From a plasmid: 20,322 bases of DNA. Below the pieces are notes generated by a model that saw nothing but the letters and a program-made list of their open reading frames with translations, was not told the DNA's origin and did no database searches. The stretch lies in the sequence record NZ_CP096917.1; one strand, written 5' to 3'. Shown piece after piece: positions 23 through 19,363 of this stretch; position 1 is the first letter of the stretch; the number at the start of each line of letters is the position of its first letter. The translations under genes and the position numbers were made by a program.

Positions 23-955
23 GTGAAGAGTCCGAACACATCGCAAGTTCCGGCCAAACTGGACGAGGACATCCAAAGCCGCATCGACAAGGCGAGGAAG
101 TCAGCCAGGGCGCGCAAACGCGAGGAATTGGCGGATCGTCACGCACAGGGCCAATTGGCCCTGTGGCCAGAGAGTGAGCGTGGTATTCCGAACGAGCTTG
201 TCCGGTGCGCCGTATTCTCAGCAAAGAATCGCAAGGAGCGGCGAGAGGTCTACCGAGCGAATGCACCGCTGATCGTGCCGGTTATCGGCGGTGGTGAGGT
301 CGTCTACATTGGCGAGGAACTGCGCCAGGATGACGAGACAGTTTGGATGCAGCTTGTCCACTTGGCCAAGGAGGCCCGATCAGAGAGCGTGAGCTTCACC
401 CCGTACAGCTTTCTGAAGGCGGTCAAATGGCCAATCAAGGGAACCAGCTATACCCGGCTTCTTACCTCTATCCGTCGCTTGGCCACGAGCGGGCTGGAGG
501 TCTACAGCAGCCGTTTCGACAAAGGGGTAAGCACCAAGCTTATTGCCAAGTATGAGTATTCCAAAGGGGCTGATACCCCTTGGAAGGTGCAAGTGTTCAA
601 CAAGGATGACGAGCTACTTTTCCTCTTTGACAAGCTTTACAGTCGATTGGATTGGGAGACGCGCCTCACTCTGCCCGAGGGTGTCTCGACCTGGCTGCAT
701 GGTTTTTTCTCATCCCACCGGGAGCCGTTCGACCACAAGATTGAGACACTGGCCGTGGGCGCGGGCTTGACCTTGGAATCTGAAGAGGATGCCCAGCTCG
801 ATGAAGCAGCGCGTACAGCCAAACGTAAGGCGCGACTGCGCGAGATAAAGCGGATCATCACGAAAGCACTGGAAGCCCTCCAAGAGTCTGGCTTCCTCAA
901 AAGCTTTGAGGTCACTCGTAGCGGCCTCGTCCGGGTGGTTCGGGCGCATCGGTGA
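23..955 (+). CDS. trfA: TrfA-family plasmid replication initiator (GTG start, RBS AAGGAGG)
   Basis: 310 aa. Motifs typical of IncP TrfA are seen (LWPE..R..PNELVRCAVFSAKNRK, VYIGEELRQDDETVWMQLVHLAK, FFSSHREPF). Iteron-type oriV lies immediately downstream. Confidence 0.88.
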   Translation: MKSPNTSQVPAKLDEDIQSRIDKARKSARARKREELADRHAQGQLALWPESERGIPNELVRCAVFSAKNRKERREVYRANAPLIVPVIGGGEVVYIGEELRQDDETVWMQLVHLAKEARSESVSFTPYSFLKAVKWPIKGTSYTRLLTSIRRLATSGLEVYSSRFDKGVSTKLIAKYEYSKGADTPWKVQVFNKDDELLFLFDKLYSRLDWETRLTLPEGVSTWLHGFFSSHREPFDHKIETLAVGAGLTLESEEDAQLDEAARTAKRKARLREIKRIITKALEALQESGFLKSFEVTRSGLVRVVRAHR

Positions 956-961
956 TCGAGT

Positions 962-1168
962 CACTATTGACCTTTGACCCGCGTTTTCGGCGCTGGGCCT
1001 TGGTACGCCGGCATCAAAAGCAAGGACGACCACACGATTTTGCCGCTATTGACGGTCAATAGTTTGGCTTCGTTGGCCAGTTTCCTGACTTGACCCATGA
1101 CCCACGCCCCATTGACCTTTGACACACGCCACTATTGACCTTTGACCCGCGCACTATTGACCTTTGAC
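962..1168 (+). repeat. Iteron cluster (3 full + 1 partial direct copies of CACTATTGACCTTTGAC; 22-bp spacing between the last two)
   Basis: Exact 17-mer repeated. The last two copies are in tandem with 5-bp spacers (CCGCG). Confidence 0.85.
1046..1062. repeat. Inverted pair of iteron half-sites (CTATTGAC G GTCAATAG)
   Basis: Perfect 8-bp arms matching the iteron core, located between iteron 1 and iterons 2-4. Confidence 0.7.
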
Positions 1169-1277
1169 ACACGGCCATGTTTTCCAACATGTTGTTCTAT
1201 ATAGTGTTTTGTCATCTGTCCACAGGCCATAACCGTTTTTAACCCTTTCTTTATTAACCGGTTTTTAACCCGCCGCC

Positions 1278-1286
1278 TGTGGATAA
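1278..1286 (-). promoter_or_regulatory. DnaA box (TTATCCACA)
   Basis: Perfect consensus on the minus strand (plus strand reads TGTGGATAA). A second, degenerate box CTGTCCACA is at 1216-1224 in opposite orientation, flanking the AT-rich segment. Confidence 0.7.
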
Positions 1287-2206
1287 CTTTGGGCGCGGCT
1301 TGGCCGAAAGAAACTGCGCCGCCTCTTGGGGCTTCGCCCCGCCGGCTCCTACGGGCCGCAAGCGGCCCTCCGCCCGCGCTTCGCGCTCCCGCCCGGCATC
1401 CCCAGGGGTTTCGCTTCGCTGCACCCCTCGCGCTACGCGCTCACCCGCAAATCGCGCCCCCCAAAGGGGGGAAGATGGTCCCCCGGTCGCTCAACCACCG
1501 GCAGAGCTGCAAACAAGCATCCTAGATGGGCCACCCTCTCCCATCCCCCCCGCCCCTTCCCGCTGGGAAGGGGAGCGAGTCGCCCTCTGTCGTCAGGGGT
1601 GCAGGCCGCGCGGCGCTTCGCTTGCTTCTCCTGCACCCTGCCGGTGAGCGTGGGGTCGTTCCAAGGGCATCAAGGGTTCGCTTCGCCTCGATCCTCACCC
1701 GTTCGGTGCTCGGGCTTCGCCCTGCGCTCCGCATGCGGCTTCCGGTCGAGCCCTTGACACCCTTTCCACTCCAACAGCCCACCAGACCCGCGCAACGGGC
1801 CGTGGTGCGATTCTTTGGGCCTCGGTGATGGCTTGGGGTGAACGGCCATGATTTACGGCCTTGACGGGCTTCTTATACGGTCGTAACGGTGATTCGGGCT
1901 GCTGTCGCTGGCCTGAGTGGCCTGCCGGTCTGGCCACGGCGGTAACAACAGGTGGCTCAAGCTCTGCGAGTGATTGAGCAGGTCGGCCAGCGGGCGGCCC
2001 ATCGCTTCATCGGCCAACCATGCCCACAGCACAGCGCCGGCCTGATTGCGGGCGACCAGGTGGCCACCCTCGAAATTCCAAACTGCATTCATGTCGTGCC
2101 CTCGATGCTGGGAAAATTCCCACGGCCCAAGGTAGCGTCACGACGCCGACAGCGGATCAGCTCGACCCTTAGGCTGGGCCGACAGCGATAGGCGGATAAA
2201 TATCGC

Positions 2207-4214: not shown

Positions 4215-4250
4215 GGGGGTCTTTCGCGTGCGAAAGACCCCCGTTTTTAC
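4215..4250. terminator. Bidirectional terminator-like hairpin built on a copy of the dispersed palindrome
   Basis: 28-bp perfect palindrome GGGGGTCTTTCGCGTGCGAAAGACCCCC at 4215-4242, followed by GTTTTTACTTT. Lies between convergent higA and the 90-aa minus-strand gene. Confidence 0.5.
4220..4237. repeat. Dispersed palindrome copy 1 (TCTTTCGCGTGCGAAAGA)
   Basis: Core TTTCGC-GT-GCGAAA. Confidence 0.8.
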
Positions 4251-4271: not shown

Positions 4272-4291
4272 GACTTTCGCGCGCGAAAGTC
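4272..4291. repeat. Dispersed palindrome copy 2 (GACTTTCGCGCGCGAAAGTC)
   Basis: 20-bp perfect palindrome, 52 bp from copy 1. Confidence 0.8.
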
Positions 4292-4699: not shown

Positions 4700-4986
4700 G
4701 TCATCTGGAGAGTTTGAGCTATCTTCGACAGGAGGCGACTCTAGCGGGTTGTCCACCTACGGCGGACGACCCGAAAAGGGAGATACCCCCTTCGGGGGCC
4801 CCAAAAATTTTTCCACACCATACGCAACTAGTAGTTGCATGGCTAAGTCATTGGTAAAAAAGAAGATTTTGTGTAGACAACGGGGCTGTGAGATACTTAA
4901 ATTGCTTTCATCATGAAAGCACAATAGCCGTTATAGATCAACAGGTTATTGCGTTTTTTAACGTAGTCACTATCATTGGAAACATT
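4700..4986. other. oriT: Candidate oriT (MOBF-type) upstream of trwA
   Basis: Lower-GC region between divergent genes. Contains inverted repeat GCTTTCAT C ATGAAAGC at 4904-4920, inverted repeat GCAACTA G TAGTTGC at 4824-4838 and hairpin CCCCC TTCG GGGGG at 4786-4798. ATAGCC / TATAG motifs at 4923-4940 are reminiscent of MOBF nic regions. The nic site is not assignable by eye. Confidence 0.5.
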
Positions 4987-5343
4987 ATGAGTCAGTCATC
5001 TATCCCATGCCGCTTCGATTCGAGCACCGCAGCCTTCCTGAAGGCGGAAGCGGCGCGCGAAGGCGTGTCTCAGTCGGAGTACATCCGGCGCATGGTAAGT
5101 AAGGGACTTTTGGTGCAGTCGCTAGAGGATGCAGTCTCGGAAATTCGCTCAGTTTCTCGGGCATCTGGGAGCGGCATAACCGAAGAAGGTTTCCGATTTT
5201 TGGCAACGAGTGTTCTTGAAGTCAGAAATCTTTTGCGCATAATTTCAGCAAAGAACTTCCCAACTGCTGTGACCGAAGCAAGGAAAGATGCAGAGGACGA
5301 AGTGAAGCGCCTTCTTGGCGATGGGGGTAGCAATGTCGGTTAG
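4987..5343 (+). CDS. TrwA/TraY-like ribbon-helix-helix relaxosome accessory protein
   Basis: 118 aa from ATG 4987. N-terminal RHH-like stretch (CRFDSSTAAFLKAEAAREGVSQSEYIRRMVSKGL). Immediately precedes the coupling protein and relaxase genes. Confidence 0.6.
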   Translation: MSQSSIPCRFDSSTAAFLKAEAAREGVSQSEYIRRMVSKGLLVQSLEDAVSEIRSVSRASGSGITEEGFRFLATSVLEVRNLLRIISAKNFPTAVTEARKDAEDEVKRLLGDGGSNVG

Positions 5344-7093
5344 AAGATCGACCAACACGGAGAACCTTGTACGTGGTGCGGATACTCTTCTGCACCAAGG
5401 GACGATGCTGGCAAAGGCCGCGCTTTGGGCTATCAGCTCAGGTGTTCTTGTTGGCTCTGTGGTGGTTTCAATCGGTGCCTCTCTCGTCACCACAGGCACT
5501 GAAAGGACGTTCGCTTACAAGCACATTGTCGCAAAGACAAAGGTATTTTTTTCACAGGAAAAGCACTTGGTTGATCTTGTCATCAACGGCAAAGAAGTGT
5601 CGCTTCCAGCCGACCAGGCTGCGATTGTCACAAGCGGTATTTTTGAGAAAGTGCGCGCGAGAGTTGCACTCGTCGGATTGTTCGGATTGATGGTTGGTGG
5701 TGCGACCTCTGGAGCCCTCGTTTTGTACTGGAGGCGGCGAGGAAGTAAGCAGGCCGAAGATGAATTTATCCGGGGCACTCGTCTCGTCGAAGGGCAACAG
5801 TTGGCGGGATTGATTCAGGCGGATAACAAAGAGAGCAAGATCACTATTGCGGGAGTGCCAACGCTTGCAGGTGGGGAGATGCTTCATACGATGATTTCGG
5901 GGGCAGTCGGAACCGGTAAATCCGTTTCGATTCTCGAAATTCTGGATAGCGTCAGGGCGCAAGGAAAGCGGGCGATTGTTTACGATCCGACAGGGGAGTT
6001 CACAGAGTATTACTACCGCGAAGGGCGGGATGTGATACTTAATCCGCTAGACGCAAGAAGCCCAAACTGGAACTTGTGGAGAGAGATAAGGAGCGACTTC
6101 GATTACCGTAGTTTTGCGACATCTTTGGTACAGGTAAAAAGCCAGACAGACCCATTTTTTGAACAGTCTGCACGGATCATCGCGGAAGAGCTTTTCAGAA
6201 AACTGGCTCAGATTGGCAGAGCGACGAACCAAGCTGTTTATGATGCAGCGGCCAAGCTGACATTACAGGAGCTTTTCGAGCTTTTGAAGGGAACCAGTGG
6301 GGCAAACTTGATTGATCCGGCTGGCGAGAGAACGGCGCTTTCTGTGCGCTCTGCTTTTCTGAATGCCATGAATGCTTTTCGTTATCTCCACGACGACGGC
6401 GAGGCGTTCTCAATCCGAGAATGGGTAGAAAACGACTCGGCTGATTCATGGCTCTTTATCCCATCTCGCGCTGATTACCATGAAGCGGTCAAACCGCTAA
6501 TCACCCTTTGGCTAGAGATCGCTACACGAGGTGTCATGAATCTGCCGCCGATTCGGGAGTCTCGGTTCTGGCTGGTGGTGGACGAGCTTCCCACCTTGCA
6601 AAAGATCGAGGCGCTGCAAACGCTCGTGACGGTAACCCGCAAGTATGGGATGTCCGGTGTATTCGGGATTCAGTCGGTTTCTCAGATGCGCGAGCTGTAC
6701 GGCAAGGACGGTGCGCAGACTGTTATGGGGATGTGCCAGACCTGGGTTGTGCTCCGTGTGGCGGATTCTGAAACAGCCAAGTACCTCTCCGAGACGCTTG
6801 GCCAAGCCGACATTCAGGAGAAGGATGAGGGCCTTTCCTTCGGCGCGGAATCCAACCGGGACGGGACAAATCTCGTCTCCAAACGGACAGAGCGCGCGAT
6901 TGTGCTGGCCTCGGAGATTCAGCACTTGCCCGACCTGGAGGGCTATATGCGGGTTCCTGGCCCGTATCCCGTGGCGAAGATCAAGCTCCAGTATCGTAAC
7001 CGGGAGAAGATTGCTGCGCCCTTTGTGCCGCGTCAGCAAGGCATGTTTGCGGCAGCGCCGGCCGAAGCCGTCGATGCCGATCCGTTCGCGTAG
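5321..7093 (+). CDS. Type IV coupling protein (TrwB/TraD family)
   Basis: Two N-terminal transmembrane segments. Walker A (GAVGTGKS). TraD/TrwB-like block LVVDELPTLQKI. The start is ambiguous among TTG 5315, ATG 5321 and ATG 5333. It overlaps the end of the trwA-like gene. Confidence 0.85.
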   Translation: MGVAMSVRRSTNTENLVRGADTLLHQGTMLAKAALWAISSGVLVGSVVVSIGASLVTTGTERTFAYKHIVAKTKVFFSQEKHLVDLVINGKEVSLPADQAAIVTSGIFEKVRARVALVGLFGLMVGGATSGALVLYWRRRGSKQAEDEFIRGTRLVEGQQLAGLIQADNKESKITIAGVPTLAGGEMLHTMISGAVGTGKSVSILEILDSVRAQGKRAIVYDPTGEFTEYYYREGRDVILNPLDARSPNWNLWREIRSDFDYRSFATSLVQVKSQTDPFFEQSARIIAEELFRKLAQIGRATNQAVYDAAAKLTLQELFELLKGTSGANLIDPAGERTALSVRSAFLNAMNAFRYLHDDGEAFSIREWVENDSADSWLFIPSRADYHEAVKPLITLWLEIATRGVMNLPPIRESRFWLVVDELPTLQKIEALQTLVTVTRKYGMSGVFGIQSVSQMRELYGKDGAQTVMGMCQTWVVLRVADSETAKYLSETLGQADIQEKDEGLSFGAESNRDGTNLVSKRTERAIVLASEIQHLPDLEGYMRVPGPYPVAKIKLQYRNREKIAAPFVPRQQGMFAAAPAEAVDADPFA

Positions 7094-7104
7094 GGGAAGA
7101 AACG

Positions 7105-10100
7105 ATGCTCTCCGCGAAGGTGATCGAGAACGCGCAACAGGCTGAACACTACTTCAGCCAGGACAACTACTACACGACCGAAGAAGGATTCGAGCAGTCC
7201 GCGTGGGCCGGTAAGGGCGCAGCGGCGCTGGGGTTGTCGGGTGGCGTTCATCGTGAGCAGTTCATGGAGCTGCTTGAGGGAAAGGTGGATGGCCAGGAGC
7301 TGGGCAAGTGGGTCAGGAACGAAGAGACTGGCCAGAAGGAGCGCGAACACCGCCCAGGAATAGACCTCACCTTTTCGGCCCCGAAAAGTGTTTCCTTGCT
7401 GGCTGAAGTCGCCGGCAACGAGGAAGTGAGCAAAGCCCATGATGTTGCGGTCGAGCGGGCCATTGCATACCTTGAACGTGTGGCCGCTCAGGCGCGGACT
7501 ACTGTTGATGGGGTTACGTCCCGAGAAGATACCGGCAACTTGGTCGTTGCCCAGTTTCGCCACGATACCAGCCGGGAACTTGATCCGCAGACCCATACCC
7601 ATGCGGTTGTTTTCAACCTTACCAAGCGTTCGGATGGTCAATGGCGCTCCCTTTCCAATGAGGAGTTGCTAGGCCACATCAAGGATGCCGGCGCCTACTA
7701 CCGCACCGAGCTGGCGGGGCAACTGTCTGCGCTGGGGTATGAAATCGAGCGCACGCACGCTGATGGGCGGTTCGAGGTAAAGGGCTTTACCAAGGAGCAG
7801 CTTGAGCACTTCAGCCAGCGCAGCGGGCAGATTGAGCATGCTTTGGCCGAGCGTGGGAAGAACCGTCAGACGGCTACTACCGAGGAAAAGCAGATGGCCG
7901 CCCTGGACACTCGCCAGGCGAAAAAAGAGGTGGATCGTGGCCCGCTGCGTGAGGAATGGCTTTCGCGTGCGAAAGATGTAGGGATCGAGTGGGACAAGAT
8001 ACCTCGTGACAAGGGCGTGACTTTCGCGCGCGAAAGTTCGGCAGAACTCTACCTCCGGGCTAAAGAGGCGGTTGATTACGCCACGAAGCACCTTAGCGAG
8101 CGGCAGGCAGCTTTTTCCGCAAAGGATCTGTATCGGCACGCCGTCGAGTTTGGGACTGGACGAACCACCATCCAGGCCATCGACAAGGCAATTCGTGAGT
8201 CCAAGAAGTCGGGCGACCTGATCCCGATCGGAGACAAGCAGGAACGACTGACCACCCGTGACGCTGTGACGGCAGAGCTGCGGATGCTGGATGCGCTCGA
8301 ACGCTCAAAGGGCGCGGTTTCTTCCGTGGTCGGCACCAACCGGCTAGATGCAAAGATCGAGGCGGCACAGAGCCGCTTGATCCGGGATGGCGTCATCGAT
8401 GCCCAGCTTAATGCCGGCCAGTTGGATGCAGCGAAACTGATCCTGGGCACCAATGATCGGTTTGTAGGCGTCCAGGGTTATGCCGGTACTGGCAAAACCA
8501 CAATGCTAAATGTGGTGAAGGCTGTTGCCGAAGAACAGGGATACGTGGTGCGTGGCCTCGCGCAAAGTGCTTCCGCTGCTGCCACGTTGGAGGCTGAAAC
8601 GGGGATCAAAAGCCAAACGGTGGAGAGCTTCCTCCTGGAGCGCCAGAGAGAGCGGGAAAAGGCCGAGAAAGAGGCGGAGCGCACCGCCAAGAGCAGTGAC
8701 AAGGACAAGCCAACCAGCCGGGATGTGATGGGGAATCGCTACCTGGAGATTCCGGGCGGAATGTTCAAGGAGCGGCAATTGTTGGTTGCTCGCGGAACCG
8801 TTACCAATGCGCTGGCCCTGGAAGCCGTGGACAGACTCCGCGAAATGAGGCCCAAAAACGCCTTGGCCAAAGAGGTGCGTGCCCATGCTCTTGCTACAGC
8901 CCGTGGCATGGTGAAGTGGGAGCGGGCAAGCACGACTGACCAAGTTCTTTTCAGAGCGGCCGAGGTGGCCTCCAAGGTGAAATCGCTTTTCCAAGGGGAG
9001 AAGCCACAGGAAGCAGCGAAGCCAAAGGGCGAAATCTGGACTGTTGATGAGGCCAGTTTGTTGGGGCAACGGGACATCAACCGCCTGTTGGCAGAGGCCG
9101 AGCGAGTCGGGGCCAGGGTTCAGTTCACGGGTGATGTTCGCCAGCTATCGGCTGTCAGCGCTGGCAAGCCGTTCGAGGTTATGCAAACGGCAGGTGGCAT
9201 GCAGACGGCCAAGATGACGGAGATTCACCGCCAGAAGAACGACCTACTCAAAGACACCGTTGCCGACATTATCGAGAAGCGCGAGCAGGATGCTTTCAAG
9301 AAGCTGGCCGGGAATACCGTCGAGCTGAAAGACAACGAGAAGTTGATAGCCCGCATCGTGGCGGATGTCCGCCAGGACGTTGGCCGGGAGATTCGGCACG
9401 AACTGTCTGGCGCTGGTGAAAAGTCCCACAAAGACACTTTGGTCATCACAGCCTTGAATGAAGACCGCCGGGCTATCAATAACGGCGTGCGGCAGGCGCT
9501 CAAGGAAGATGGCGTTATCTCTGGCCAGGCCCGTGATACCGAGGTGTTGGTTAATCGAGGCATGACCAAAGCGCAGGCATCCCACGCACAGAACTACCAC
9601 GAAGGCGACGTGGTGCGGTTTGGGCGTGACTATGAACGCCTCGGGGTGAAGGGTGGCGAGTATGCCCGCGTGGTTGGCGTGAGCGACCTTGGCACCGTAA
9701 AGCTGCAAAAAGCGGACGGGCAAACCCTGGACTGGCGACCCGCACAGACCTCAAAAATTGAGGTGTTCCATGCCGAGCGCCGGGAGCTGCAAGCCGGAGA
9801 CAAGATCAGATTCACGCGCAATGACAAGGATCGTGGCTTGAACAACGGCGATGTTGCCTATGTGAAAGCAATCAACGGCGACAAGGCCACGGTGCAGTTA
9901 AAGGGCAAGACCGTTGCGATTGATCTGCGCGAGGTCAAGCACCTGGACTACGCCTACGCATCCACGATCCATTCCAGCCAGGGGAAAACAGTGGACGCGA
10001 CCGCCTTCCACGTCCGGGGGAAGTCCGGCCAGGTCTTTGGCGACCGGGCCTTCTACGTTGGCGCAACCCGCTCTAGGCACGAGCTGCGCATCTACACCGA

Positions 10101-13587: not shown

Positions 13588-14130
13588 ATGAAGATCAAGA
13601 ACCTTCTCTCCATCATCGCCGTTGCCGCAATCGCGCAAGGCGCATTTGCGGCCGAGATCGACGCCGTAACCCTCTCCCACGATGGCCGCATTCTGCGCGC
13701 TCAGGGAGCGCCGGCAGCCGTCCAGGTTGCGGCTTTCAGCAGTACGGCCCCGGACTCGGTGCCGGCGACGTGCAAGGTGTTTGACATGGCCGGCTTTCTG
13801 AACCGGGACGATGCCAAGCCTGCGCTGCCTGTGGTCGAGGGGGTTCCCTATGGTTCCCGTCTCGTTTCTGCCTGGCACGAAGCGGCCGGCATTGTCGGCC
13901 GCGCGCCGGACTCCATGTTTTTCTGCATGACCAAGGACGGTGAACGGATGTTCGGAGAGGGTACGAGCTTCAACCCGTCCTATGAGTACCGGAAGGCGGC
14001 CGGCGCAGCGCCGGAGCGCGGCCAGATCGTCAGTGTGATCGGCGGCAGTGTGGTGATCGGTGTTGTGTTCTGGAACCCGGTGACGCCGGTTGCCGAATCC
14101 AAGTACGTCTCCATGAACTTCGGCCGCTGA
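13588..14130 (+). CDS. Exported hypothetical protein (about 180 aa)
   Basis: Signal peptide MKIKNLLSIIAVAAIAQGAFA-AE. Alternative start at 13570 overlaps the upstream stop. RBS AAAGGAAA. Confidence 0.65.
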   Translation: MKIKNLLSIIAVAAIAQGAFAAEIDAVTLSHDGRILRAQGAPAAVQVAAFSSTAPDSVPATCKVFDMAGFLNRDDAKPALPVVEGVPYGSRLVSAWHEAAGIVGRAPDSMFFCMTKDGERMFGEGTSFNPSYEYRKAAGAAPERGQIVSVIGGSVVIGVVFWNPVTPVAESKYVSMNFGR

Positions 14131-14147
14131 CTTTCGCGCGCGAAAGT
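14129..14147. repeat. Dispersed palindrome copy 5 (GACTTTCGCGCGCGAAAGT)
   Basis: Overlaps the stop codon of the last exported-protein gene. Confidence 0.8.
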
Positions 14148-14157
14148 GGAGGCTGGC

Positions 14158-14177
14158 GACTTTCGCATGCGAAAGTC
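14158..14177. repeat. Dispersed palindrome copy 6 (GACTTTCGCATGCGAAAGTC, AT centre variant)
   Basis: 29 bp from copy 5. Upstream of the eamA-like gene. Confidence 0.8.
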
Positions 14178-14212
14178 TGCTGGCCAGTCTATCGACTATC
14201 CAAGGATTGAAA

Positions 14213-15112
14213 ATGAGTTCAGGCTTTGCTCTCGGTAACAACCGGCCTCAGTGGGCCGACTGGCATTTCGCCCTGCCGCTTCTTTTTGTGGTGCTCTACG
14301 GCTCTGGTTTCGTTGGGGCCAAGCTGGGGCTTCCCGATGCCGGCCCCTTTACCTTCCTCGCGCTGCGCTTTGCGCTGGCCTCGATCATCATGGTTGTGAT
14401 CGCCCTGGCCATCAAAGCACCGTGGCCAACCACCCCGAAAGAGTGGCTGCACATTGCCGGTGCCGGGTTCTTCGGTGTGGGGGTTTTTTCGGCTGCGGCT
14501 TTCTCCAGTATCGCGCTGGGTGTGCCGCCCGCCGTTTCCGCCCTGATCGTGGCGCTTAACCCCATCGTGGTGGCTTTGGCAGCGGGGCCGCTCCTGGGCG
14601 AGCGCACCAACTACCGCCAGCTCCTGGGGTTGCTGCTGGGCTTCTGCGGCGTTTATCTGGTCTTGCGGGATCGGCTTGGGGTCGATGCGGGCTATACCAC
14701 GGCGGTACTGTTGTCCGTGCTGGCCCTGCTGGGCCTGGCTGTCGGCAACCTGTACCAGAAAAAGCACTGCACCAGCATGAACCTTTTTACCGGGGGAGCC
14801 TTGCAGTGCTGCGTGTGCGCCCTGGCCATGAGTGCGGGCATGATGATCTTTGACGAAGGCCCGGTTCACTGGACGGCTGAATTCATGGTGGCTTGGTTCT
14901 GGATGGCCATTGCTGTTTCGATTGGGGCTGTCAGCATCCTCTACATCATGATCCGCCGCGCCGAGGTCAGCCGGGTGGCCAGTGTGTTTTTCCTGATGCC
15001 GGTTAGCGCCGCTGTGATTGCCTATGCACTCTTTGGCCAAGCACTGACGGCCAGCGCGTTCCTGGGCATGGGCGTTACGGTTGCCGGCGTGATGCTGGCC
15101 CAGCGTAGGTAA
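14213..15112 (+). CDS. EamA/DMT-superfamily transporter (10 TMS-type)
   Basis: About 300 aa with repeated hydrophobic helices typical of EamA (e.g. GVYLVLRDRLG, FWMAIAVSIGAVSILYIMIRR). ATG at 14213 with RBS AAGGA. The ORF tracker's TTG start at 14207 is rejected. Confidence 0.8.
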   Translation: MSSGFALGNNRPQWADWHFALPLLFVVLYGSGFVGAKLGLPDAGPFTFLALRFALASIIMVVIALAIKAPWPTTPKEWLHIAGAGFFGVGVFSAAAFSSIALGVPPAVSALIVALNPIVVALAAGPLLGERTNYRQLLGLLLGFCGVYLVLRDRLGVDAGYTTAVLLSVLALLGLAVGNLYQKKHCTSMNLFTGGALQCCVCALAMSAGMMIFDEGPVHWTAEFMVAWFWMAIAVSIGAVSILYIMIRRAEVSRVASVFFLMPVSAAVIAYALFGQALTASAFLGMGVTVAGVMLAQRR

Positions 15113-15119
15113 GCCTCAT

Positions 15120-15137
15120 TCGTCTATCGCCGTACAT
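15120..15137. repeat. Left 18-bp inverted repeat flanking the RHH gene (TCGTCTATCGCCGTACAT)
   Basis: 17 of 18 positions form an inverted repeat with 15401-15418. Ends 12 bp before the RHH gene start. Confidence 0.75.
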
Positions 15138-15149
15138 TGGGAGAGAAGC

Positions 15150-15401
15150 ATGGAAAACCAACTTTTGGCCCCAGAGGCTGGCCAGGCAGAGCCGAAAGCG
15201 AAGCCGAGCAAGCGCCGGCGTGGCTCCATCTACAAAGACAGGCAGGTAGTGAGTTTGCGGCTTCCAGAGGGCTTGCACGCCGATCTACTGGCCTTTGCCG
15301 ACGAGCAGCAGGTGGTTTTGAATACGTACATCCTCGGACTGGTGGAGGCTGACTTGGCCGAGCGCCGGAAACTTTCGCGTGCGAAAGCCGGGAAAAAGTG
15401 A
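15150..15401 (+). CDS. Ribbon-helix-helix (CopG/Arc/ParG-like) DNA-binding protein
   Basis: 83 aa. Flexible basic N-terminus, then VVSLRLPEGLHADLLAFADEQQVVLNTYILGLVEADL (beta-alpha-alpha RHH pattern). RBS GGGAGAGAAG. Confidence 0.7.
   Translation: MENQLLAPEAGQAEPKAKPSKRRRGSIYKDRQVVSLRLPEGLHADLLAFADEQQVVLNTYILGLVEADLAERRKLSRAKAGKK
15371..15387. repeat. Dispersed palindrome copy 7 (ACTTTCGCGTGCGAAAG), inside the 3' end of the RHH gene
   Basis: Encodes KLSRAKAG. Confidence 0.8.
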
Positions 15402-15418
15402 TGTACCGCGATAGACGA
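15401..15418. repeat. Right 18-bp inverted repeat flanking the RHH gene (ATGTACCGCGATAGACGA)
   Basis: Begins at the last base of the RHH stop codon. Confidence 0.75.
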
Positions 15419-15426
15419 GTCCGGCC

Positions 15427-15445
15427 GACTTTCGCGCGCGAAAGT
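15427..15445. repeat. Dispersed palindrome copy 8 (GACTTTCGCGCGCGAAAGT)
   Basis: Shares a 22-bp identical stretch, including the 3' flank GTTCG, with copy 4. Confidence 0.8.
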
Positions 15446-15480
15446 TCGTCCGTGTCGGTGACACTGAAGCGAGGCGGGAC

Positions 15481-15894
15481 ATGAAAGACCGATGCCACGA
15501 TGAAGCAATGGCCGAGATGTTCAAGGAAGACCCAGCCTTTGCGGTCGAGCTGGTAAACAGCATCCTTGACGATGGCGACCAGGACGATTTGCAGATTGCC
15601 TTTCGGCAGATTGACAAGGCCGGGCTTTTTGACCGTGCCGGCGTGCTGTACGAGGTGGCTTGTGATGTCATTGGGGCGATCATCGCCCACTACTCCGAAG
15701 CACTCGCCCAAGAGCGCGGGAAGCCGGTTCCCGATGCTGCGGCCGTGGAACGGATCGAGGCCGCCAAGCGCGCCTTGCGGCTTGAGCGCGACGAGCTGGA
15801 CACCTCGAATGCAGAGGCAATCAAGTCAGTGATTCAGAAGTATGGGCCACAGGCGCGGGAACTCTACCAAGCCGGTAATGGGAGGCCGGTGTGA
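15481..15894 (+). CDS. Hypothetical acidic protein (137 aa). N-terminal stretch resembles 'addiction module antidote' proteins but lacks an evident HTH.
   Basis: EDPAFAVELVNSILDDGDQDDLQIAFRQIDKAG resembles the N-terminal region of ParE/RelE-partner antidote proteins. C-terminal part is a predicted coiled coil. Stop overlaps the next start (GTGA). Confidence 0.6.
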   Translation: MKDRCHDEAMAEMFKEDPAFAVELVNSILDDGDQDDLQIAFRQIDKAGLFDRAGVLYEVACDVIGAIIAHYSEALAQERGKPVPDAAAVERIEAAKRALRLERDELDTSNAEAIKSVIQKYGPQARELYQAGNGRPV

Positions 15895-16097
15895 AGTGTC
15901 CTTGCTGCGGTGGTGCCGAGCTTGTCCGTGATACCCGCGACATGCCCTATGCTTACAAAGGCGAAACGACCGCTGTTCTGGCTGTAACAGGAGACTTCTG
16001 CCCCGCCTGCGGCGAAGTCATCTTGGATCGGGAGAATGGCGACCGTTACATGCGCGAAATATCGTTCTTCTCGAAGGCTGTGGACGCCAGGCGCTGA
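15891..16097 (+). CDS. Stand-alone YgiT-type (MqsA N-terminal-like) zinc-ribbon protein, 68 aa
   Basis: MKCPCCGG...DFCPACGE matches the CxxC...CxxC YgiT/MqsA zinc-finger domain (MKCPVC...YTFRG...C..C). No HTH domain. GTG start translationally coupled to the upstream ORF. Confidence 0.6.
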   Translation: MKCPCCGGAELVRDTRDMPYAYKGETTAVLAVTGDFCPACGEVILDRENGDRYMREISFFSKAVDARR

Positions 16098-16117
16098 CTT
16101 TCGCGCGCGAAAGTCAG
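16094..16117. repeat. Dispersed palindrome copy 9 (CTGACTTTCGCGCGCGAAAGTCAG, 24-bp perfect)
   Basis: Overlaps the stop codons of both convergent genes (zinc-ribbon ORF and recombinase). Confidence 0.8.
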
Positions 16118-16668
16118 GCTGGCTTGTCCATCAGCCGGGAAATGGTGGACGGGTGGACGTTGAACAACCTGGCCACGTCAGCCGCCGACTTCTCCCCGCT
16201 GGCCACCATCCGGCGCGCTTCCTCTTTTTGTTCCTGGTTGAGCTTGCTACGTCGGCCGCCGATCCGGCCCTTCTGTCTGGCGACATCGAGGCCGGCGCGC
16301 GTCCTCTCCCGAGTCATCGCCCGCTCGAACTCCGCGAAAGCCCCCAGCATCTGCATCATCATCCGCCCGGCCGGTGTCGTTGTGTCGATGGCCTCGGTGA
16401 TGCTGCGAAAGCCAGCCTTCGCCAGCTCGATGCAATCCATGACGTGCAACAGATCCTTGAGTGACCGCGAGAGCCGATCCAGCTTCCAGACCACAAGGAC
16501 ATCGCCGGGCCGCAGTTGCTCTAACGCCCGGTGCAACTCCGGCCGATCCCAGCGCCCGCCAGAAGCCTTTTCCGTGTAAAGGCGTTCACATCCGGCCTGC
16601 CGTAGCGCAGCCTCTTGAATAGCTGTGTCCTGATCATCGGTGGACACACGGGCATAGCCGATCAACAT
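16114..16668 (-). CDS. Serine recombinase, small Gin/Hin-invertase / resolvase type (184 aa)
   Basis: MLIGYARVSTDDQ..., VVWKLDRLSRS, GRIGGRRSKL. C-terminal HTH (AADVARLFNVHPSTISRLM). Confidence 0.88.
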   Translation of the reverse strand: MLIGYARVSTDDQDTAIQEAALRQAGCERLYTEKASGGRWDRPELHRALEQLRPGDVLVVWKLDRLSRSLKDLLHVMDCIELAKAGFRSITEAIDTTTPAGRMMMQMLGAFAEFERAMTRERTRAGLDVARQKGRIGGRRSKLNQEQKEEARRMVASGEKSAADVARLFNVHPSTISRLMDKPA

Positions 16669-17097: not shown

Positions 17098-17180
17098 TGC
17101 TCCTTTCTGTTGCGAAAACGTATTGCGTTAATTTTATGTTTCGCAACAGGTTTGTGCAATGCTATTTGCAAGGCATTTGG
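17098..17180. promoter_or_regulatory. AT-rich repeat region (TTGCGAAA / TTTCGCAA / TTGTGCAA / TTTGCAA half-sites): promoter and/or recombination (res-like) site of the membrane-protein/recombinase operon
   Basis: Inverted repeat GTTGCGAAA...TTTCGCAAC at 17108-17145, plus further TTGYGCAA copies. Confidence 0.4.
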
Positions 17181-17248
17181 GGCATCCCTGTCATTTTCTG
17201 AAGGCGACTGCACGGAATATCAGGAGTCGGCTGCACTGCCTGTCGGGA

Positions 17249-17632
17249 CTACTTCTTGCAGGCGCGTTCCATGTGCAGAACGGCGTCAAGCAATGCCATT
17301 GAATCGCAAGCGTCAGAAGCGTAGACCGTGCGCGTCCTTGGGTCATAGGACACCATGACGAACGGCTCTGGTGTGCGTTCGGCACTCCGGGGCGCTTGAC
17401 GCTTGGAGCGGTAGGCTCGGCATACCTCCCTCTTTTCGGCAAGCTGCTGGCCGATCTTCTTCCAGTCGAAGAGATAGTCGGGATACAACCGGCGCATGTC
17501 GCGCTTATCCTGCGGCTCAAGCGTGTAATTGCGAATGCGCATGATGTTGTAATTGCTTCTGCCGACCTTGACCGTGAGGTAGCAAAAGCCTTTTCTGGTC
17601 GTGACGAAGGCGCTGCTTGGCTTGCGGCTCAT
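17249..17632 (-). CDS. Hypothetical protein (127 aa) translationally coupled downstream of resolvase 2
   Basis: ATGA start/stop overlap with the upstream resolvase. No recognisable family. Confidence 0.5.
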   Translation of the reverse strand: MSRKPSSAFVTTRKGFCYLTVKVGRSNYNIMRIRNYTLEPQDKRDMRRLYPDYLFDWKKIGQQLAEKREVCRAYRSKRQAPRSAERTPEPFVMVSYDPRTRTVYASDACDSMALLDAVLHMERACKK

Positions 17633-18201
17633 CGTTGCTCGCTCCCGCTTTGCAGCGCAGCGTATAGAGCCGTCTTGCTCACCTTAAGCCGCGTGGCGGC
17701 CTCGCGGACGTTCAGCCCGTTTGCGATGTGCTCCCGCGCCCGCTGTAGCTTGTCTGCGGTGACGACCGGCTTGCGCCCGCCCTTGCGACCGCGTGCGGCA
17801 GCAGCGGTCAACCCAGCTTTGGTGCGCTCGCGGATCAGGTCGCGCTCAAACTCGGCGAGGGCCGCAAAAATCCCGAAGACCAGCTTGCCGGGGGCCGTGG
17901 TGGTGTCGATAGCTGCGCCTTGTCCCGTTAGCACCTTGAGGCCGACACCGCGTGCGGCCAAGCCTTGCACGGTATTGACCAAGTGAACCATCGAGCGGCC
18001 TAAGCGGTCGAGTTTCCACACGACGAGGGCATCACCTTCGCGCAAATAGGCCAGCGCTGCATCCAGACCTTGCCGCTCTTTTTTCGCGCCGCTGATGATG
18101 TCCTCAAATACCCGCTCGCAGCCCGCCTTGCGCAGCGCGTCTTTCTGTAAATCGACGTGCTGACTCTCCGTCGATACCCGCGCATAGCCGATCAGTGCCA
18201 T
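17629..18201 (-). CDS. Serine recombinase / resolvase (TnpR-like, about 190 aa)
   Basis: MALIGYARVSTESQ, VVWKLDRLGRS, C-terminal HTH (VREAATRLKVSKTALYAAL). Start taken at ATG 18201. The ORF tracker's 18222 is an N-terminal extension. Confidence 0.85.
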   Translation of the reverse strand: MALIGYARVSTESQHVDLQKDALRKAGCERVFEDIISGAKKERQGLDAALAYLREGDALVVWKLDRLGRSMVHLVNTVQGLAARGVGLKVLTGQGAAIDTTTAPGKLVFGIFAALAEFERDLIRERTKAGLTAAAARGRKGGRKPVVTADKLQRAREHIANGLNVREAATRLKVSKTALYAALQSGSEQR

Positions 18202-18204
18202 TGC

Positions 18205-18300
18205 CGCCCCTTTTGTCCGCATTTCCGTCCGCCTATCTTAATGTCCGACAACCCATTAAACAAGCATGTTGCCGGACAATGTCCGGCTTGACCGGCTAAT
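18205..18300. promoter_or_regulatory. res-like site upstream of resolvase 2
   Basis: Repeated TGTCCG / CGGACA elements, including the perfect inverted repeat CCGGACA A TGTCCGG at 18282-18296 and TGTCCGACA at 18242-18250. This is the usual Tn3-family res position, immediately 5' of tnpR. Confidence 0.55.
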
Positions 18301-18416
18301 GATCGTTTTACGGACAGGGCGGCGCATTGGAACAGCGAACCGACTTAAGCCGGAACCCCAGATTTTTCCGGCCAGTGGCTAACGGTCGTGTCGCCGCCAC
18401 CATCTGACGGCTGGCG

Positions 18417-18698
18417 TCAGCCGAAAAGCTCGCTATGCGAGCCAAGCCGCGCCAGTCGCAGAGTGTCGGAATCGGACTTGCGGTAAATCAGCAGCAGGTC
18501 GGGCTTGATGTGGCACTCGCGGTAGCCCGCCCAATCGCCGGAAAGATCATGGTCGCGGTGGCGCGCGTCCAACGGCTGATCGGTCGCCAGCGCGAGCAGC
18601 ACCGGCTTGAGCGCGTCATCGAGCGTGGCACGGTGCTGTCCCTTGGCCTCGCGCTTGAAATCGCGCTTGAACGCGGACGAACGATCAATCGTCCGCAT
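18417..18698 (-). CDS. relE: RelE/YafQ-family toxin
   Basis: 93 aa. Motif ECHIKPDLLLIYRKSDSDTLRLARLGSHSELF is typical of YafQ/RelE. Overlaps the antitoxin gene. Confidence 0.82.
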   Translation of the reverse strand: MRTIDRSSAFKRDFKREAKGQHRATLDDALKPVLLALATDQPLDARHRDHDLSGDWAGYRECHIKPDLLLIYRKSDSDTLRLARLGSHSELFG

Positions 18699-18954
18699 GC
18701 AGGTCTGCCATTAGGTTGTCCACGCTGGCGAACTTCTTGCCCTTGCCCGCTTCCAGTTCGGCAATCGCCTTTTTGGTCGTGGCGTTGGGCACCTTCACGT
18801 CAAAAGGCAAGCGGTGCTCATCGGCGATGCGCAGCATCAACAGGCGGATGGCGTCGGAAATCGACAAGCCCATTGCTTCGAGTGCGCTGGCGGCGCGTTC
18901 CTTGGTGTTGGTGTCGATGCGGGCGCGGACGTAGGTGTCGGCTGTAGTGCTCAT
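18685..18954 (-). CDS. relB: RelB/DinJ-family antitoxin
   Basis: Start ATG 18954 with RBS GGAGA. MSTTADTYVRARIDTNTKERAASALEAMGLSISDAIRLLMLRIA matches the DinJ/RelB fold. Confidence 0.8.
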   Translation of the reverse strand: MSTTADTYVRARIDTNTKERAASALEAMGLSISDAIRLLMLRIADEHRLPFDVKVPNATTKKAIAELEAGKGKKFASVDNLMADLHADD

Positions 18955-19341
18955 GGCAATTCTCCGGGAATGGTTCAAACACCCATATTGTAGTCACAAT
19001 GCGACCACATAACAAGGCCGCATCGTGCAGGGGAGTTCTGAGCAATTCCGGTTCTTCGCGGCGCTTCGTGTATAGGACTGCTGACGCGGCCCGTTCAGAA
19101 GTCGGCTGCACACCGGGCGGCCAGCCCCGTGAACTGGTGCAGTCGTCTTCTGAAAATGACAATCCCCGGAGGCGTTGCATAAACGACCGTTTGCGCACCG
19201 TGCCTGCATGGGCGTTCCCCCGGCCGGATGGCCGGGGTCGGGCTGTCGTGCTGCGCATCGAGCCGCCTGCCGGCGTCTCGCCCCTTCGGGCTTCCATCCC
19301 TAACGTCTCCGCGCCGTTGGCGCTGCGCGCTCCGCTTGCCG

Positions 19342-19363
19342 AGACTTTCGCGCGCGAAAGTCT
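19342..19363. repeat. Dispersed palindrome copy 10 (AGACTTTCGCGCGCGAAAGTCT, 22-bp perfect), 16 bp upstream of the parA -35
   Basis: Lies in the parA promoter region. Confidence 0.8.

Follow-up and report, generated by a model that had tools for sequence, protein, structure and literature searches.

The window, by which we mean the whole stretch analysed here, comprises 20,322 nucleotides of the plasmid sequence record NZ_CP096917.1. It contains a small gene for an 83-aa ribbon-helix-helix (RHH) protein, enclosed by two 18-bp arms, TCGTCTATCGCCGTACAT at 15120-15137 and ATGTACCGCGATAGACGA at 15401-15418, which form an inverted repeat matched at 17 of 18 positions. The arms lie 281 bp apart and the interior segment has 263 bp, the whole arm-to-arm unit measuring 299 bp. 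On the left, the arm begins 8 nt past the stop codon of the transporter gene eamA and ends 12 bp 5' of the RHH start codon (ATG), just 5' of the ribosome-binding site. On the right, the first base of the arm is the last base of the RHH stop codon (TGA). Genes for a 137-aa protein and a zinc-ribbon protein follow and, on the opposite strand, one for a Gin-like serine recombinase. The RHH protein belongs to a tiny family of 45 representatives, and a comparison with solved structures gave no match at E values up to 10. An initial annotation had described the arms, their positions and the inverted repeat around the gene accurately, including a unit of about 300 bp, the 12-bp gap and the overlap with the stop codon. 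It had proposed that the arms are either operators of the RHH protein or recombination sites of a small invertible cassette. A search of the window for further copies of the 18-mer, which it had also suggested, returned only the two arms at up to three mismatches (0.02 copies expected by chance).

No close or near-identical relative of the window plasmid was found in PLSDB, and the comparisons are thus built on metagenome contigs. Pattern searches with the 18-mer in genome, viral and metagenome collections led to 51 metagenome stretches, 13 genome-collection stretches and one viral contig that hold the motif. Ten independent arrays of the 18-mer were identified, eight in contigs of metagenomes or metagenome-assembled genomes and one each in the plasmids pI of Denitratisoma oestradiolicum and pDCB1 of Diaphorobacter. 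Each array consists of 7-9 copies, all in direct orientation and phased at 22-23 bp, and the arrays have the spacing pattern 23-23-22-50-133-23-45 bp in common. DnaA boxes (TGTGGATAA) are present in the three arrays that were read base by base (L028, pI and pDCB1). A repA gene of the RPA family, either found by us or annotated, adjoins the array in six of the ten cases (L028, L038, L041, L061, pI and pDCB1), the L028 gene matching Pfam PF10134 with an E value of 5e-76; the stretches of the other four arrays (L060, L063, L064 and L070) gave no repA match. By this organisation the ten arrays are textbook iteron origins.

A matrix built from the 80 iterons of the ten arrays assigns 31.4 and 33.8 bits to the left and right arm; scores within the arrays have their median at 31.0 and reach 33.8 bits at most. 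No other site in the window exceeds 8 bits. The single C/G difference between the left arm and the reverse complement of the right arm falls on iteron position 12, which also varies in genuine iterons. The sequence comparison thus gives good support to the view that the arms are iteron copies of the RPA-RepA plasmid family (pAOVO01/pDCB1/pI, called parent plasmids below) and not recombination sites. They are not part of an origin, being two inverted copies, 263 bp apart, in GC-rich coding DNA. Nor does the replicon that bears them have the cognate rep gene: no RepA homolog was found in the window, which instead has TrfA (27% identical to RepA over 115 aa only) and oriV iterons that are unrelated to the 18-mer. 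Many lone matches to the 18-mer in unrelated genomes and metagenomes, without a nearby copy of the palindrome described below, were set aside as chance hits, their number being close to the estimate for collections of that size.

Ten sequence variants of the cassette, with nucleotide identities down to 79.7%, were compared. Each arm has one variable column among its 18, as against 44-82% variable columns in the adjacent non-coding DNA; the RHH open reading frame (ORF) has 33% variable columns, and 51% at third codon positions. Judged by these alignments the arms are under strong selection, and since they are near-invariant amid variable flanks we consider them maintained, even on backbones without RepA. 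A mobile cassette with the arms as terminal inverted repeats, similar to a miniature inverted-repeat transposable element, was considered and rejected, there being no target duplication or flanking direct repeats, and no empty site among the 51 metagenome and 13 genome-collection stretches and the viral contig. Homology to other backbones spans the right arm and breaks inside the palindrome that follows it (PAL2 in Table 1), not at the arms.

The arms are accompanied by a second repeat family, which the initial annotation had overlooked. The window contains ten copies of an 18-bp palindrome (PAL), ACTTTCGCGCGCGAAAGT, where 0.06 would be expected. The copies are often paired at distances of 29-61 bp; two are located inside trwC and one inside the RHH ORF. 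Two of them, at 15371 and 15428, flank the right arm, and the latter forms a PAL-N9-iteron composite with it. This spacing from the TCGTC end of the iteron is found in five lineages (the window, L011, L075, L076 and L091) and never in origin arrays. The plasmid pI, which encodes homologs of KorA, KorB and IncC, carries PAL about 21 times per ~67 kb. KorB and its operator OB constitute the global regulon of IncP-1 plasmids. PAL, TTTCGCGCGCGAAA, resembles OB, TTTAGCSGCTAAA, in form, and its scatter over parent plasmids with KorA, KorB and IncC is likewise reminiscent of that regulon. The two sequences differ, however, and the window has ten PAL copies but no KorB. By analogy, PAL is probably a KorB-type operator that would be read in trans on the window plasmid. 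The PAL copy inside the RHH ORF encodes the C-terminal tail KLSRAKA; the RHH homologs of the parent plasmids end before this tail, which may owe its existence to selection for a DNA site at this place.

Homologs of the RHH protein are rare in PLSDB, occurring in 11 of 72,556 plasmids, all of which are among the top RepA-family matches. All of them are conjugative, with a MOBF relaxase and an F-type pilus (MPF_F), and come from betaproteobacteria of the families Comamonadaceae, Burkholderiaceae and Sterolibacteriaceae; they include pAOVO01, pDCB1, pI and the Alicycliphilus K601 plasmid; members of the pAOVO01-type group are listed in PMC6357080. The link of the RHH gene to the RepA parent family is, as far as these matches go, specific. 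In all five parent regions that were read (pI, pAOVO01 and plasmids of [Acidovorax] ebreus, Burkholderia savannae and Cupriavidus basilensis), the RHH gene is located just 3' of the relaxase gene, immediately so in four and with one small ORF between them in pI.

The cassette was also found on elements of a different kind. In L086 (contig k119_337024, 177-10687), the block of eamA, iteron, RHH gene, PAL and iteron ends the morphogenesis module of a filamentous prophage. The prophage is integrative and encodes a tyrosine integrase, a Rep_trans initiator, coat-like proteins, Zot and a secretin, and no RepA. A transporter gene together with orphan plasmid iterons is an unusual combination inside an inovirus. 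Where eamA is present, it always lies directly 5' of the left arm; it is missing from the cassette variants L075 and L091. L091 is a prophage variant in which the secretin stop codon is followed by PAL, 9 bp, an iteron, the RHH gene with PAL1 in its tail, a second iteron, 9 bp and a second PAL, giving a composite inverted repeat of ~45 bp. This layout, in which both iterons are 9 bp from PAL, is probably the ancestral one. In L076, the same inverted iteron pair surrounds an unrelated gene for a 70-aa zinc-ribbon protein. L075 encodes an RHH protein that is 47% identical to that of the window; its gene lies between inverted iteron-like sites that have partly decayed and are accompanied by PALs, and the gene after it contains a perfect iteron. 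According to these sequences, the cassette appears to travel between dependent elements, namely a TrfA plasmid and an inovirus prophage.

The window plasmid possesses the MOBF transfer set TrwA/TrwB/TrwC, of which TrwB and TrwC are 46-47% identical to their pI counterparts. Mating-pore genes are absent, and the plasmid therefore needs a conjugative helper. We favour the reading that the arms are orphan Rep-binding sites which, together with a palindrome resembling a KorB operator, make the RHH gene respond to the presence of a helper plasmid in the same cell, and we assign it a probability of roughly 55%; the function is deduced from sequence. The window is a mobilizable plasmid with a TrfA replicon, a relaxase and coupling-protein set related to that of the parent family, and iterons that face each other across the RHH gene. 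If a parent-type plasmid were present in the same cell, its RepA would occupy the arms in trans, and a palindrome-binding protein would join RepA at the composite sites. Acting as a roadblock or by looping of the 280 bp, the bound proteins could change how strongly the RHH regulator and the genes 3' of it are expressed, and in this way the dependent element would detect that its helper is there. RepA is favoured as the reader because the arms match its iteron at every informative position and because a different gene can sit between the arms, as in L076. Helper-sensing is favoured because both types of carrier element could depend on a pAOVO01-type plasmid; for the prophage, our guess is that it uses the pilus of the helper as its receptor. 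A more specific version, in which the RHH cassette is a helper-sensing switch of elements that depend on one conjugative family, with the PAL-N9-iteron composite read by RepA and a KorB-like repressor, is put forward only tentatively.

Several observations weigh against this gating by a helper. None of the cassette-bearing elements has the cognate RepA, so that action in trans is an assumption, and the binding of RepA to the arms is itself predicted from sequence. Co-residence, for which the metagenome assembly APMI01 speaks with a contig of the cassette and another with RepA and oriV, is documented by this one shared assembly only. A consensus scan, which is weak evidence, found no sigma-70-like promoter near either arm, and the route from occupancy of the left arm to expression thus lacks a detected promoter. 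The copies that flank the RHH gene of L075 retain TCGTCTATC and have lost the GTACAT end, which fits a reader of the left half only. Finally, there is no precedent for the arrangement on the parent plasmids, as PAL precedes the RHH gene in all five regions and iterons do not flank it.

The main competing explanation keeps the first proposal of the initial annotation, according to which the arms are operators through which the RHH protein autoregulates its own and the downstream genes; it might in addition bind the origins of helpers. It was correct that conserved sites of a protein-binding type flank the gene, and the location of the left arm at the ribosome-binding site as well as the occurrence of the RHH and iteron families in one plasmid lineage are in keeping with an operator. 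A further point in its favour is L075, where inverted sites containing TCGTCTATC are kept at both ends of an RHH gene that encodes a protein of 47% identity. The likely reader is nevertheless not the RHH protein, because the 18-mer is the RPA-RepA iteron, the pair in L076 encloses a zinc-ribbon gene, and the RHH homologs of the five parent plasmids have no such site nearby. A match to the RepA iteron at all informative positions, including positions 13-17, would be unexpected of an operator evolving together with RHH proteins that have diverged to 40-69% identity, and the array-bearing origins have no RHH gene nearby. Small RHH autorepressors such as CopG, Arc, ParG and omega do have repeated sites beside their own genes, but these operators are clustered promoter subsites, whereas the arms sit 281 bp apart at the two gene ends, a distance untypical of RHH operators. 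We thus regard RHH operators as unlikely.

Distinctly less probable is the idea that the arms are non-functional relics of recombination with the replicon region of a pAOVO01-type plasmid. It would explain why genes downstream of the arms have homologs beside repA on parent plasmids: a gene located between repA and korA in L038 matches residues 1-47 of the 137-aa protein, and in pDCB1 a gene named "addiction module antidote" and one for MqsA lie just 5' of repA. The decayed third copy at 14187 could be counted for it as well. Relics should not, however, be essentially invariant in ten variants while neighbouring non-coding bases vary, nor be kept on three backbones (the TrfA plasmid, the inovirus prophage and L075).

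An action at the RNA level has slightly poorer prospects still. In this case, eamA and the RHH gene would be transcribed together, and the arms would form an 18-bp stem that closes the RHH cistron and serves translational coupling or as an RNase III site. The arms do pair in both the minimum-free-energy and the centroid fold of 15105-15450 (z = -2.0), and the left arm is suitably placed between the eamA stop (8 nt) and the RHH start (12 nt). Such a stem is physically plausible, but it leaves unexplained why origins contain arrays of this very 18-mer in direct repetition, where it is recognised as a sequence and not as a pairing partner. In L076 and L075, moreover, the left copy lies 5' of a palindrome and a probable promoter, and the window has no match to an Rfam family. 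Covariation between the arms was tried as a criterion and discarded as uninformative. At the single variable position the arms match in 7 of the 10 variants, with both C-G and G-C states, but 5 of 10 would be matched by chance, the variants are related, and both states occur in true iterons.

Inversion of the cassette by the neighbouring recombinase, the second proposal of the initial annotation, was suggested by the 17/18 inverted repeat around a 263-bp segment near a Gin-like gene, an arrangement known from Gin/Hin/Cin/Pin segments, and can be dismissed almost entirely: the flank-interior-flank orientation is the same in all 24 cassette loci (23 distinct contigs), an exact query for the inverted junction (left flank, arm and reverse complement of the interior) had no match in the metagenome collection, which holds seven contigs with the cassette in normal orientation, the 18-mer also occurs in loci without this recombinase, e.g. 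L086, and the arms, as repeats of a predicted Rep-binding family, lack internal dyad symmetry on inspection of their sequence (6 of 18 positions self-complementary), unlike crossover sites of the gix/hix type, which are dyad-symmetric and ~26 bp long.

The recombinase itself is real, and its placement about 700 bp away on the opposite strand (696 bp by our measurement) was described correctly. Its nearest solved relative is the Gin invertase (E 4e-49), gamma-delta resolvase matching with 9e-26. It lies outside the segment and has a res-like site of its own: 11-bp repeats, CTGTTGCGAAA, which the arms do not resemble, precede the operon that it forms with a gene for a 135-aa membrane protein, and the AT-rich region upstream has the only promoter-like site of the area. 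Directly beside this res-like region lies a miniature Tn402/Tn5053-type element (Table 1), for which the empty site is seen in L002. L001 has an element at another insertion position that carries PemK/MazE instead, and L003, L005 and L008 have further elements with different terminal repeats. Transposons of the Tn5053 family are res site hunters, which insert into res sites via the resident resolvase and have 25-bp ends and 5-bp target duplications (PMC7765201). Insertions of Tn402-family elements at two or more positions in the res-like region of the recombinase mark the region beside the probable plasmid res as a hot spot for res hunters, and the CTGTTGCGAAA region behaves as a res site for them. 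In the simplest reading, which relies on this analogy, the Gin-like protein would be the resolvase of the plasmid, acting at ~17.1 kb, and not an invertase of the 18-mers. As cargo, the element at 17189-19161 carries a YafQ/RelB toxin-antitoxin pair along with a 127-aa gene and another resolvase.

In the accepted view, iterons serve the origin and the copy control of the same plasmid that supplies their Rep protein. Iterons are also known outside the origin, examples being P1 incA, the single copies of the R6K alpha and beta origins and those located upstream in RK2; they work through titration of Rep, through handcuffing or through looping. Like these, the arms are identical to origin iterons, few in number and outside any origin, and Rep binding with looping between two sites would be the shared logic. 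Unlike them, the arms occur on replicons without the cognate Rep (the TrfA plasmid and the inovirus prophage), and they form an inverted, convergent pair whose limits coincide with those of a small regulator gene, with a palindromic site at a constant distance of 9 bp from the iteron. A second parallel is SGI1, whose AcaCD boxes respond to IncA/C plasmids. There, too, a dependent element carries sites for DNA-binding proteins that only the helper supplies, but the signals proposed here would be a replication initiator and a KorB-like repressor instead of a transfer activator. The dependence of SGI1 on IncA-IncC is noted in PMC12217951, and for iteron plasmids PMC4980987 is a general review.

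A text search of the literature for both motifs returned no relevant paper. Iterons outside origins, and looping or handcuffing mediated by Rep, are already known, whereas conserved full-strength iterons that are inverted around a regulator gene on replicons without the matching Rep, and joined there to another orphan operator, appear to be new, as we have not seen them described. Together, the arms and the orphan operator point to cross-talk of a conjugative plasmid with the mobilizable plasmid and the prophage that share the cassette, which could consist of sensing, of titration (incompatibility) or of tethering. If this is true, Rep proteins would join the signals by which satellite elements detect their helpers, and iteron searches could predict partnerships between plasmids and satellites in metagenomes. 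Should helper-sensing in particular prove right, this would be the first case in which the iterons of an initiator have been co-opted in trans as a signal of helper presence. Even if the arms were inert, they would serve as a warning not to take every inverted repeat near a Gin-like recombinase for an invertible switch.

Table 1. Features of the window; positions count from its first nucleotide, and PAL denotes the 18-bp palindrome
Feature	Position	Strand	Remarks
trfA	23-955		adjoins the oriV of the window
oriV of the window	960-1290		iterons TTGACCTTTGACMCRCG, AT-rich stretch, DnaA box at 1278-1286
PAL, four copies in the first half	4220-4237, 4273-4290, 7959-7976, 8020-8037		ACTTTCGCGCGCGAAAGT
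PAL pair 5' of eamA	14130-14147, 14159-14176		
Iteron-like vestige, probably decayed	14185-14202	+	core GTCTATCG at 14187-14194; 8 bp after a palindrome
eamA, DMT-family transporter	14213-15112	+	Pfam EamA, E 8e-28
Left arm	15120-15137	+	one RPA-RepA iteron copy, TCGTCTATCGCCGTACAT; 31.4 bits; 1 of 18 columns variable
RHH gene, 83 aa	15150-15401	+	between the arms; weak Pfam match to HicB-type RHH
PAL1	15371-15388		at the 3' end within the RHH ORF, whose KLSRAKA tail it encodes; 2 of 18 columns variable
Right arm	15401-15418	-	perfect consensus iteron, TCGTCTATCGCGGTACAT; 33.8 bits, the score of the best origin iteron; 1 of 18 columns variable
PAL2	15428-15445		separated by 9 bp from the right arm (TCGTC end); PAL-N9-iteron composite
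137-aa gene and 68-aa zinc-ribbon gene	15481-16097	+	3' of the right-hand composite
PAL	16097-16114		between the convergent zinc-ribbon and recombinase genes
Gin-like serine recombinase, 184 aa	16114-16668	-	696 bp from the segment and outside it
Probable res site and promoter of the 135-aa/recombinase operon	17100-17188		11-bp inverted repeat CTGTTGCGAAA at 17107-17117 and 17139-17149
Miniature Tn402/Tn5053-type element, 1,973 bp	17189-19161		25-bp terminal inverted repeats TGTCATTTTCTGAAGGCGACTGCAC, 5-bp target duplication ATCCC
PAL	19344-19361		ACTTTCGCGCGCGAAAGT

A third, partial copy of the repeat had been reported at 14187-14196, in front of eamA. The 8-mer GTCTATCG does exist there, at 14187-14194 only, but the site is not of iteron grade: it scores less than 8 bits on the matrix and is mutated in the close relative L023, and on these two grounds it was rejected as a working site. 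It lies 8 bp past the PAL copy at 14159-14176, close to the geometry of the palindrome-N9-iteron composite, and is probably a decayed vestige of the left-hand iteron, which stayed at this place as the backbone acquired the eamA block.

The window is taken as essentially the whole plasmid of ~20.3 kb, because a Logan contig of 20,369 nt shows the identical gene order. Besides the genes mentioned above, it encodes KfrA, HigBA, ParA, several secreted proteins and a 78-aa protein. Starting from trfA and oriV, the order is KfrA and HigBA, the Trw transfer set, the secreted proteins, the stretch from eamA to the recombinase operon, and finally ParA and the 78-aa protein. The start of the 68-aa zinc-ribbon gene (15891-16097) overlaps the end of the 137-aa gene, and its product matches the N-terminal zinc ribbon of the MqsA profile only (Pfam positions 1-67 of 131); the Pfam scan reported no helix-turn-helix family for it, and no MqsR toxin gene was recognised in the window.

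Pairs of iterons or half-iterons that face outward, 118-188 bp apart, were noticed beside parent-plasmid origins, namely those of pI and pDCB1, and near the tRNA-side end of prophages (L012, 8289-8443; L072, 10255-10390; L030, 7923-8058; L082, 8101-8240; L085, 3576-3752). In the two prophage-like loci L012 (8128-8228) and L072 (10025-10128), a conserved element of ~100 nt with a long closing stem (GTCAAGGGACCGTGGAATAAATGGAGGGGACCC...CCCTTGAC) lies just 5' of the outward pair and could be a structured RNA or a single-stranded DNA signal. The deposited pI record, NZ_LR778302.1 (L082-L084), is linear with 124.8 kb and appears to represent about two tandem copies of a ~67-kb plasmid, its protein accessions and palindrome positions recurring at an offset of ~66.9 kb. 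In L004, a metagenome variant of the window plasmid, the region corresponding to 4820-10090 is missing, i.e. trwA, trwB and most of trwC, and the deletion junction shows 8 bp of microhomology.

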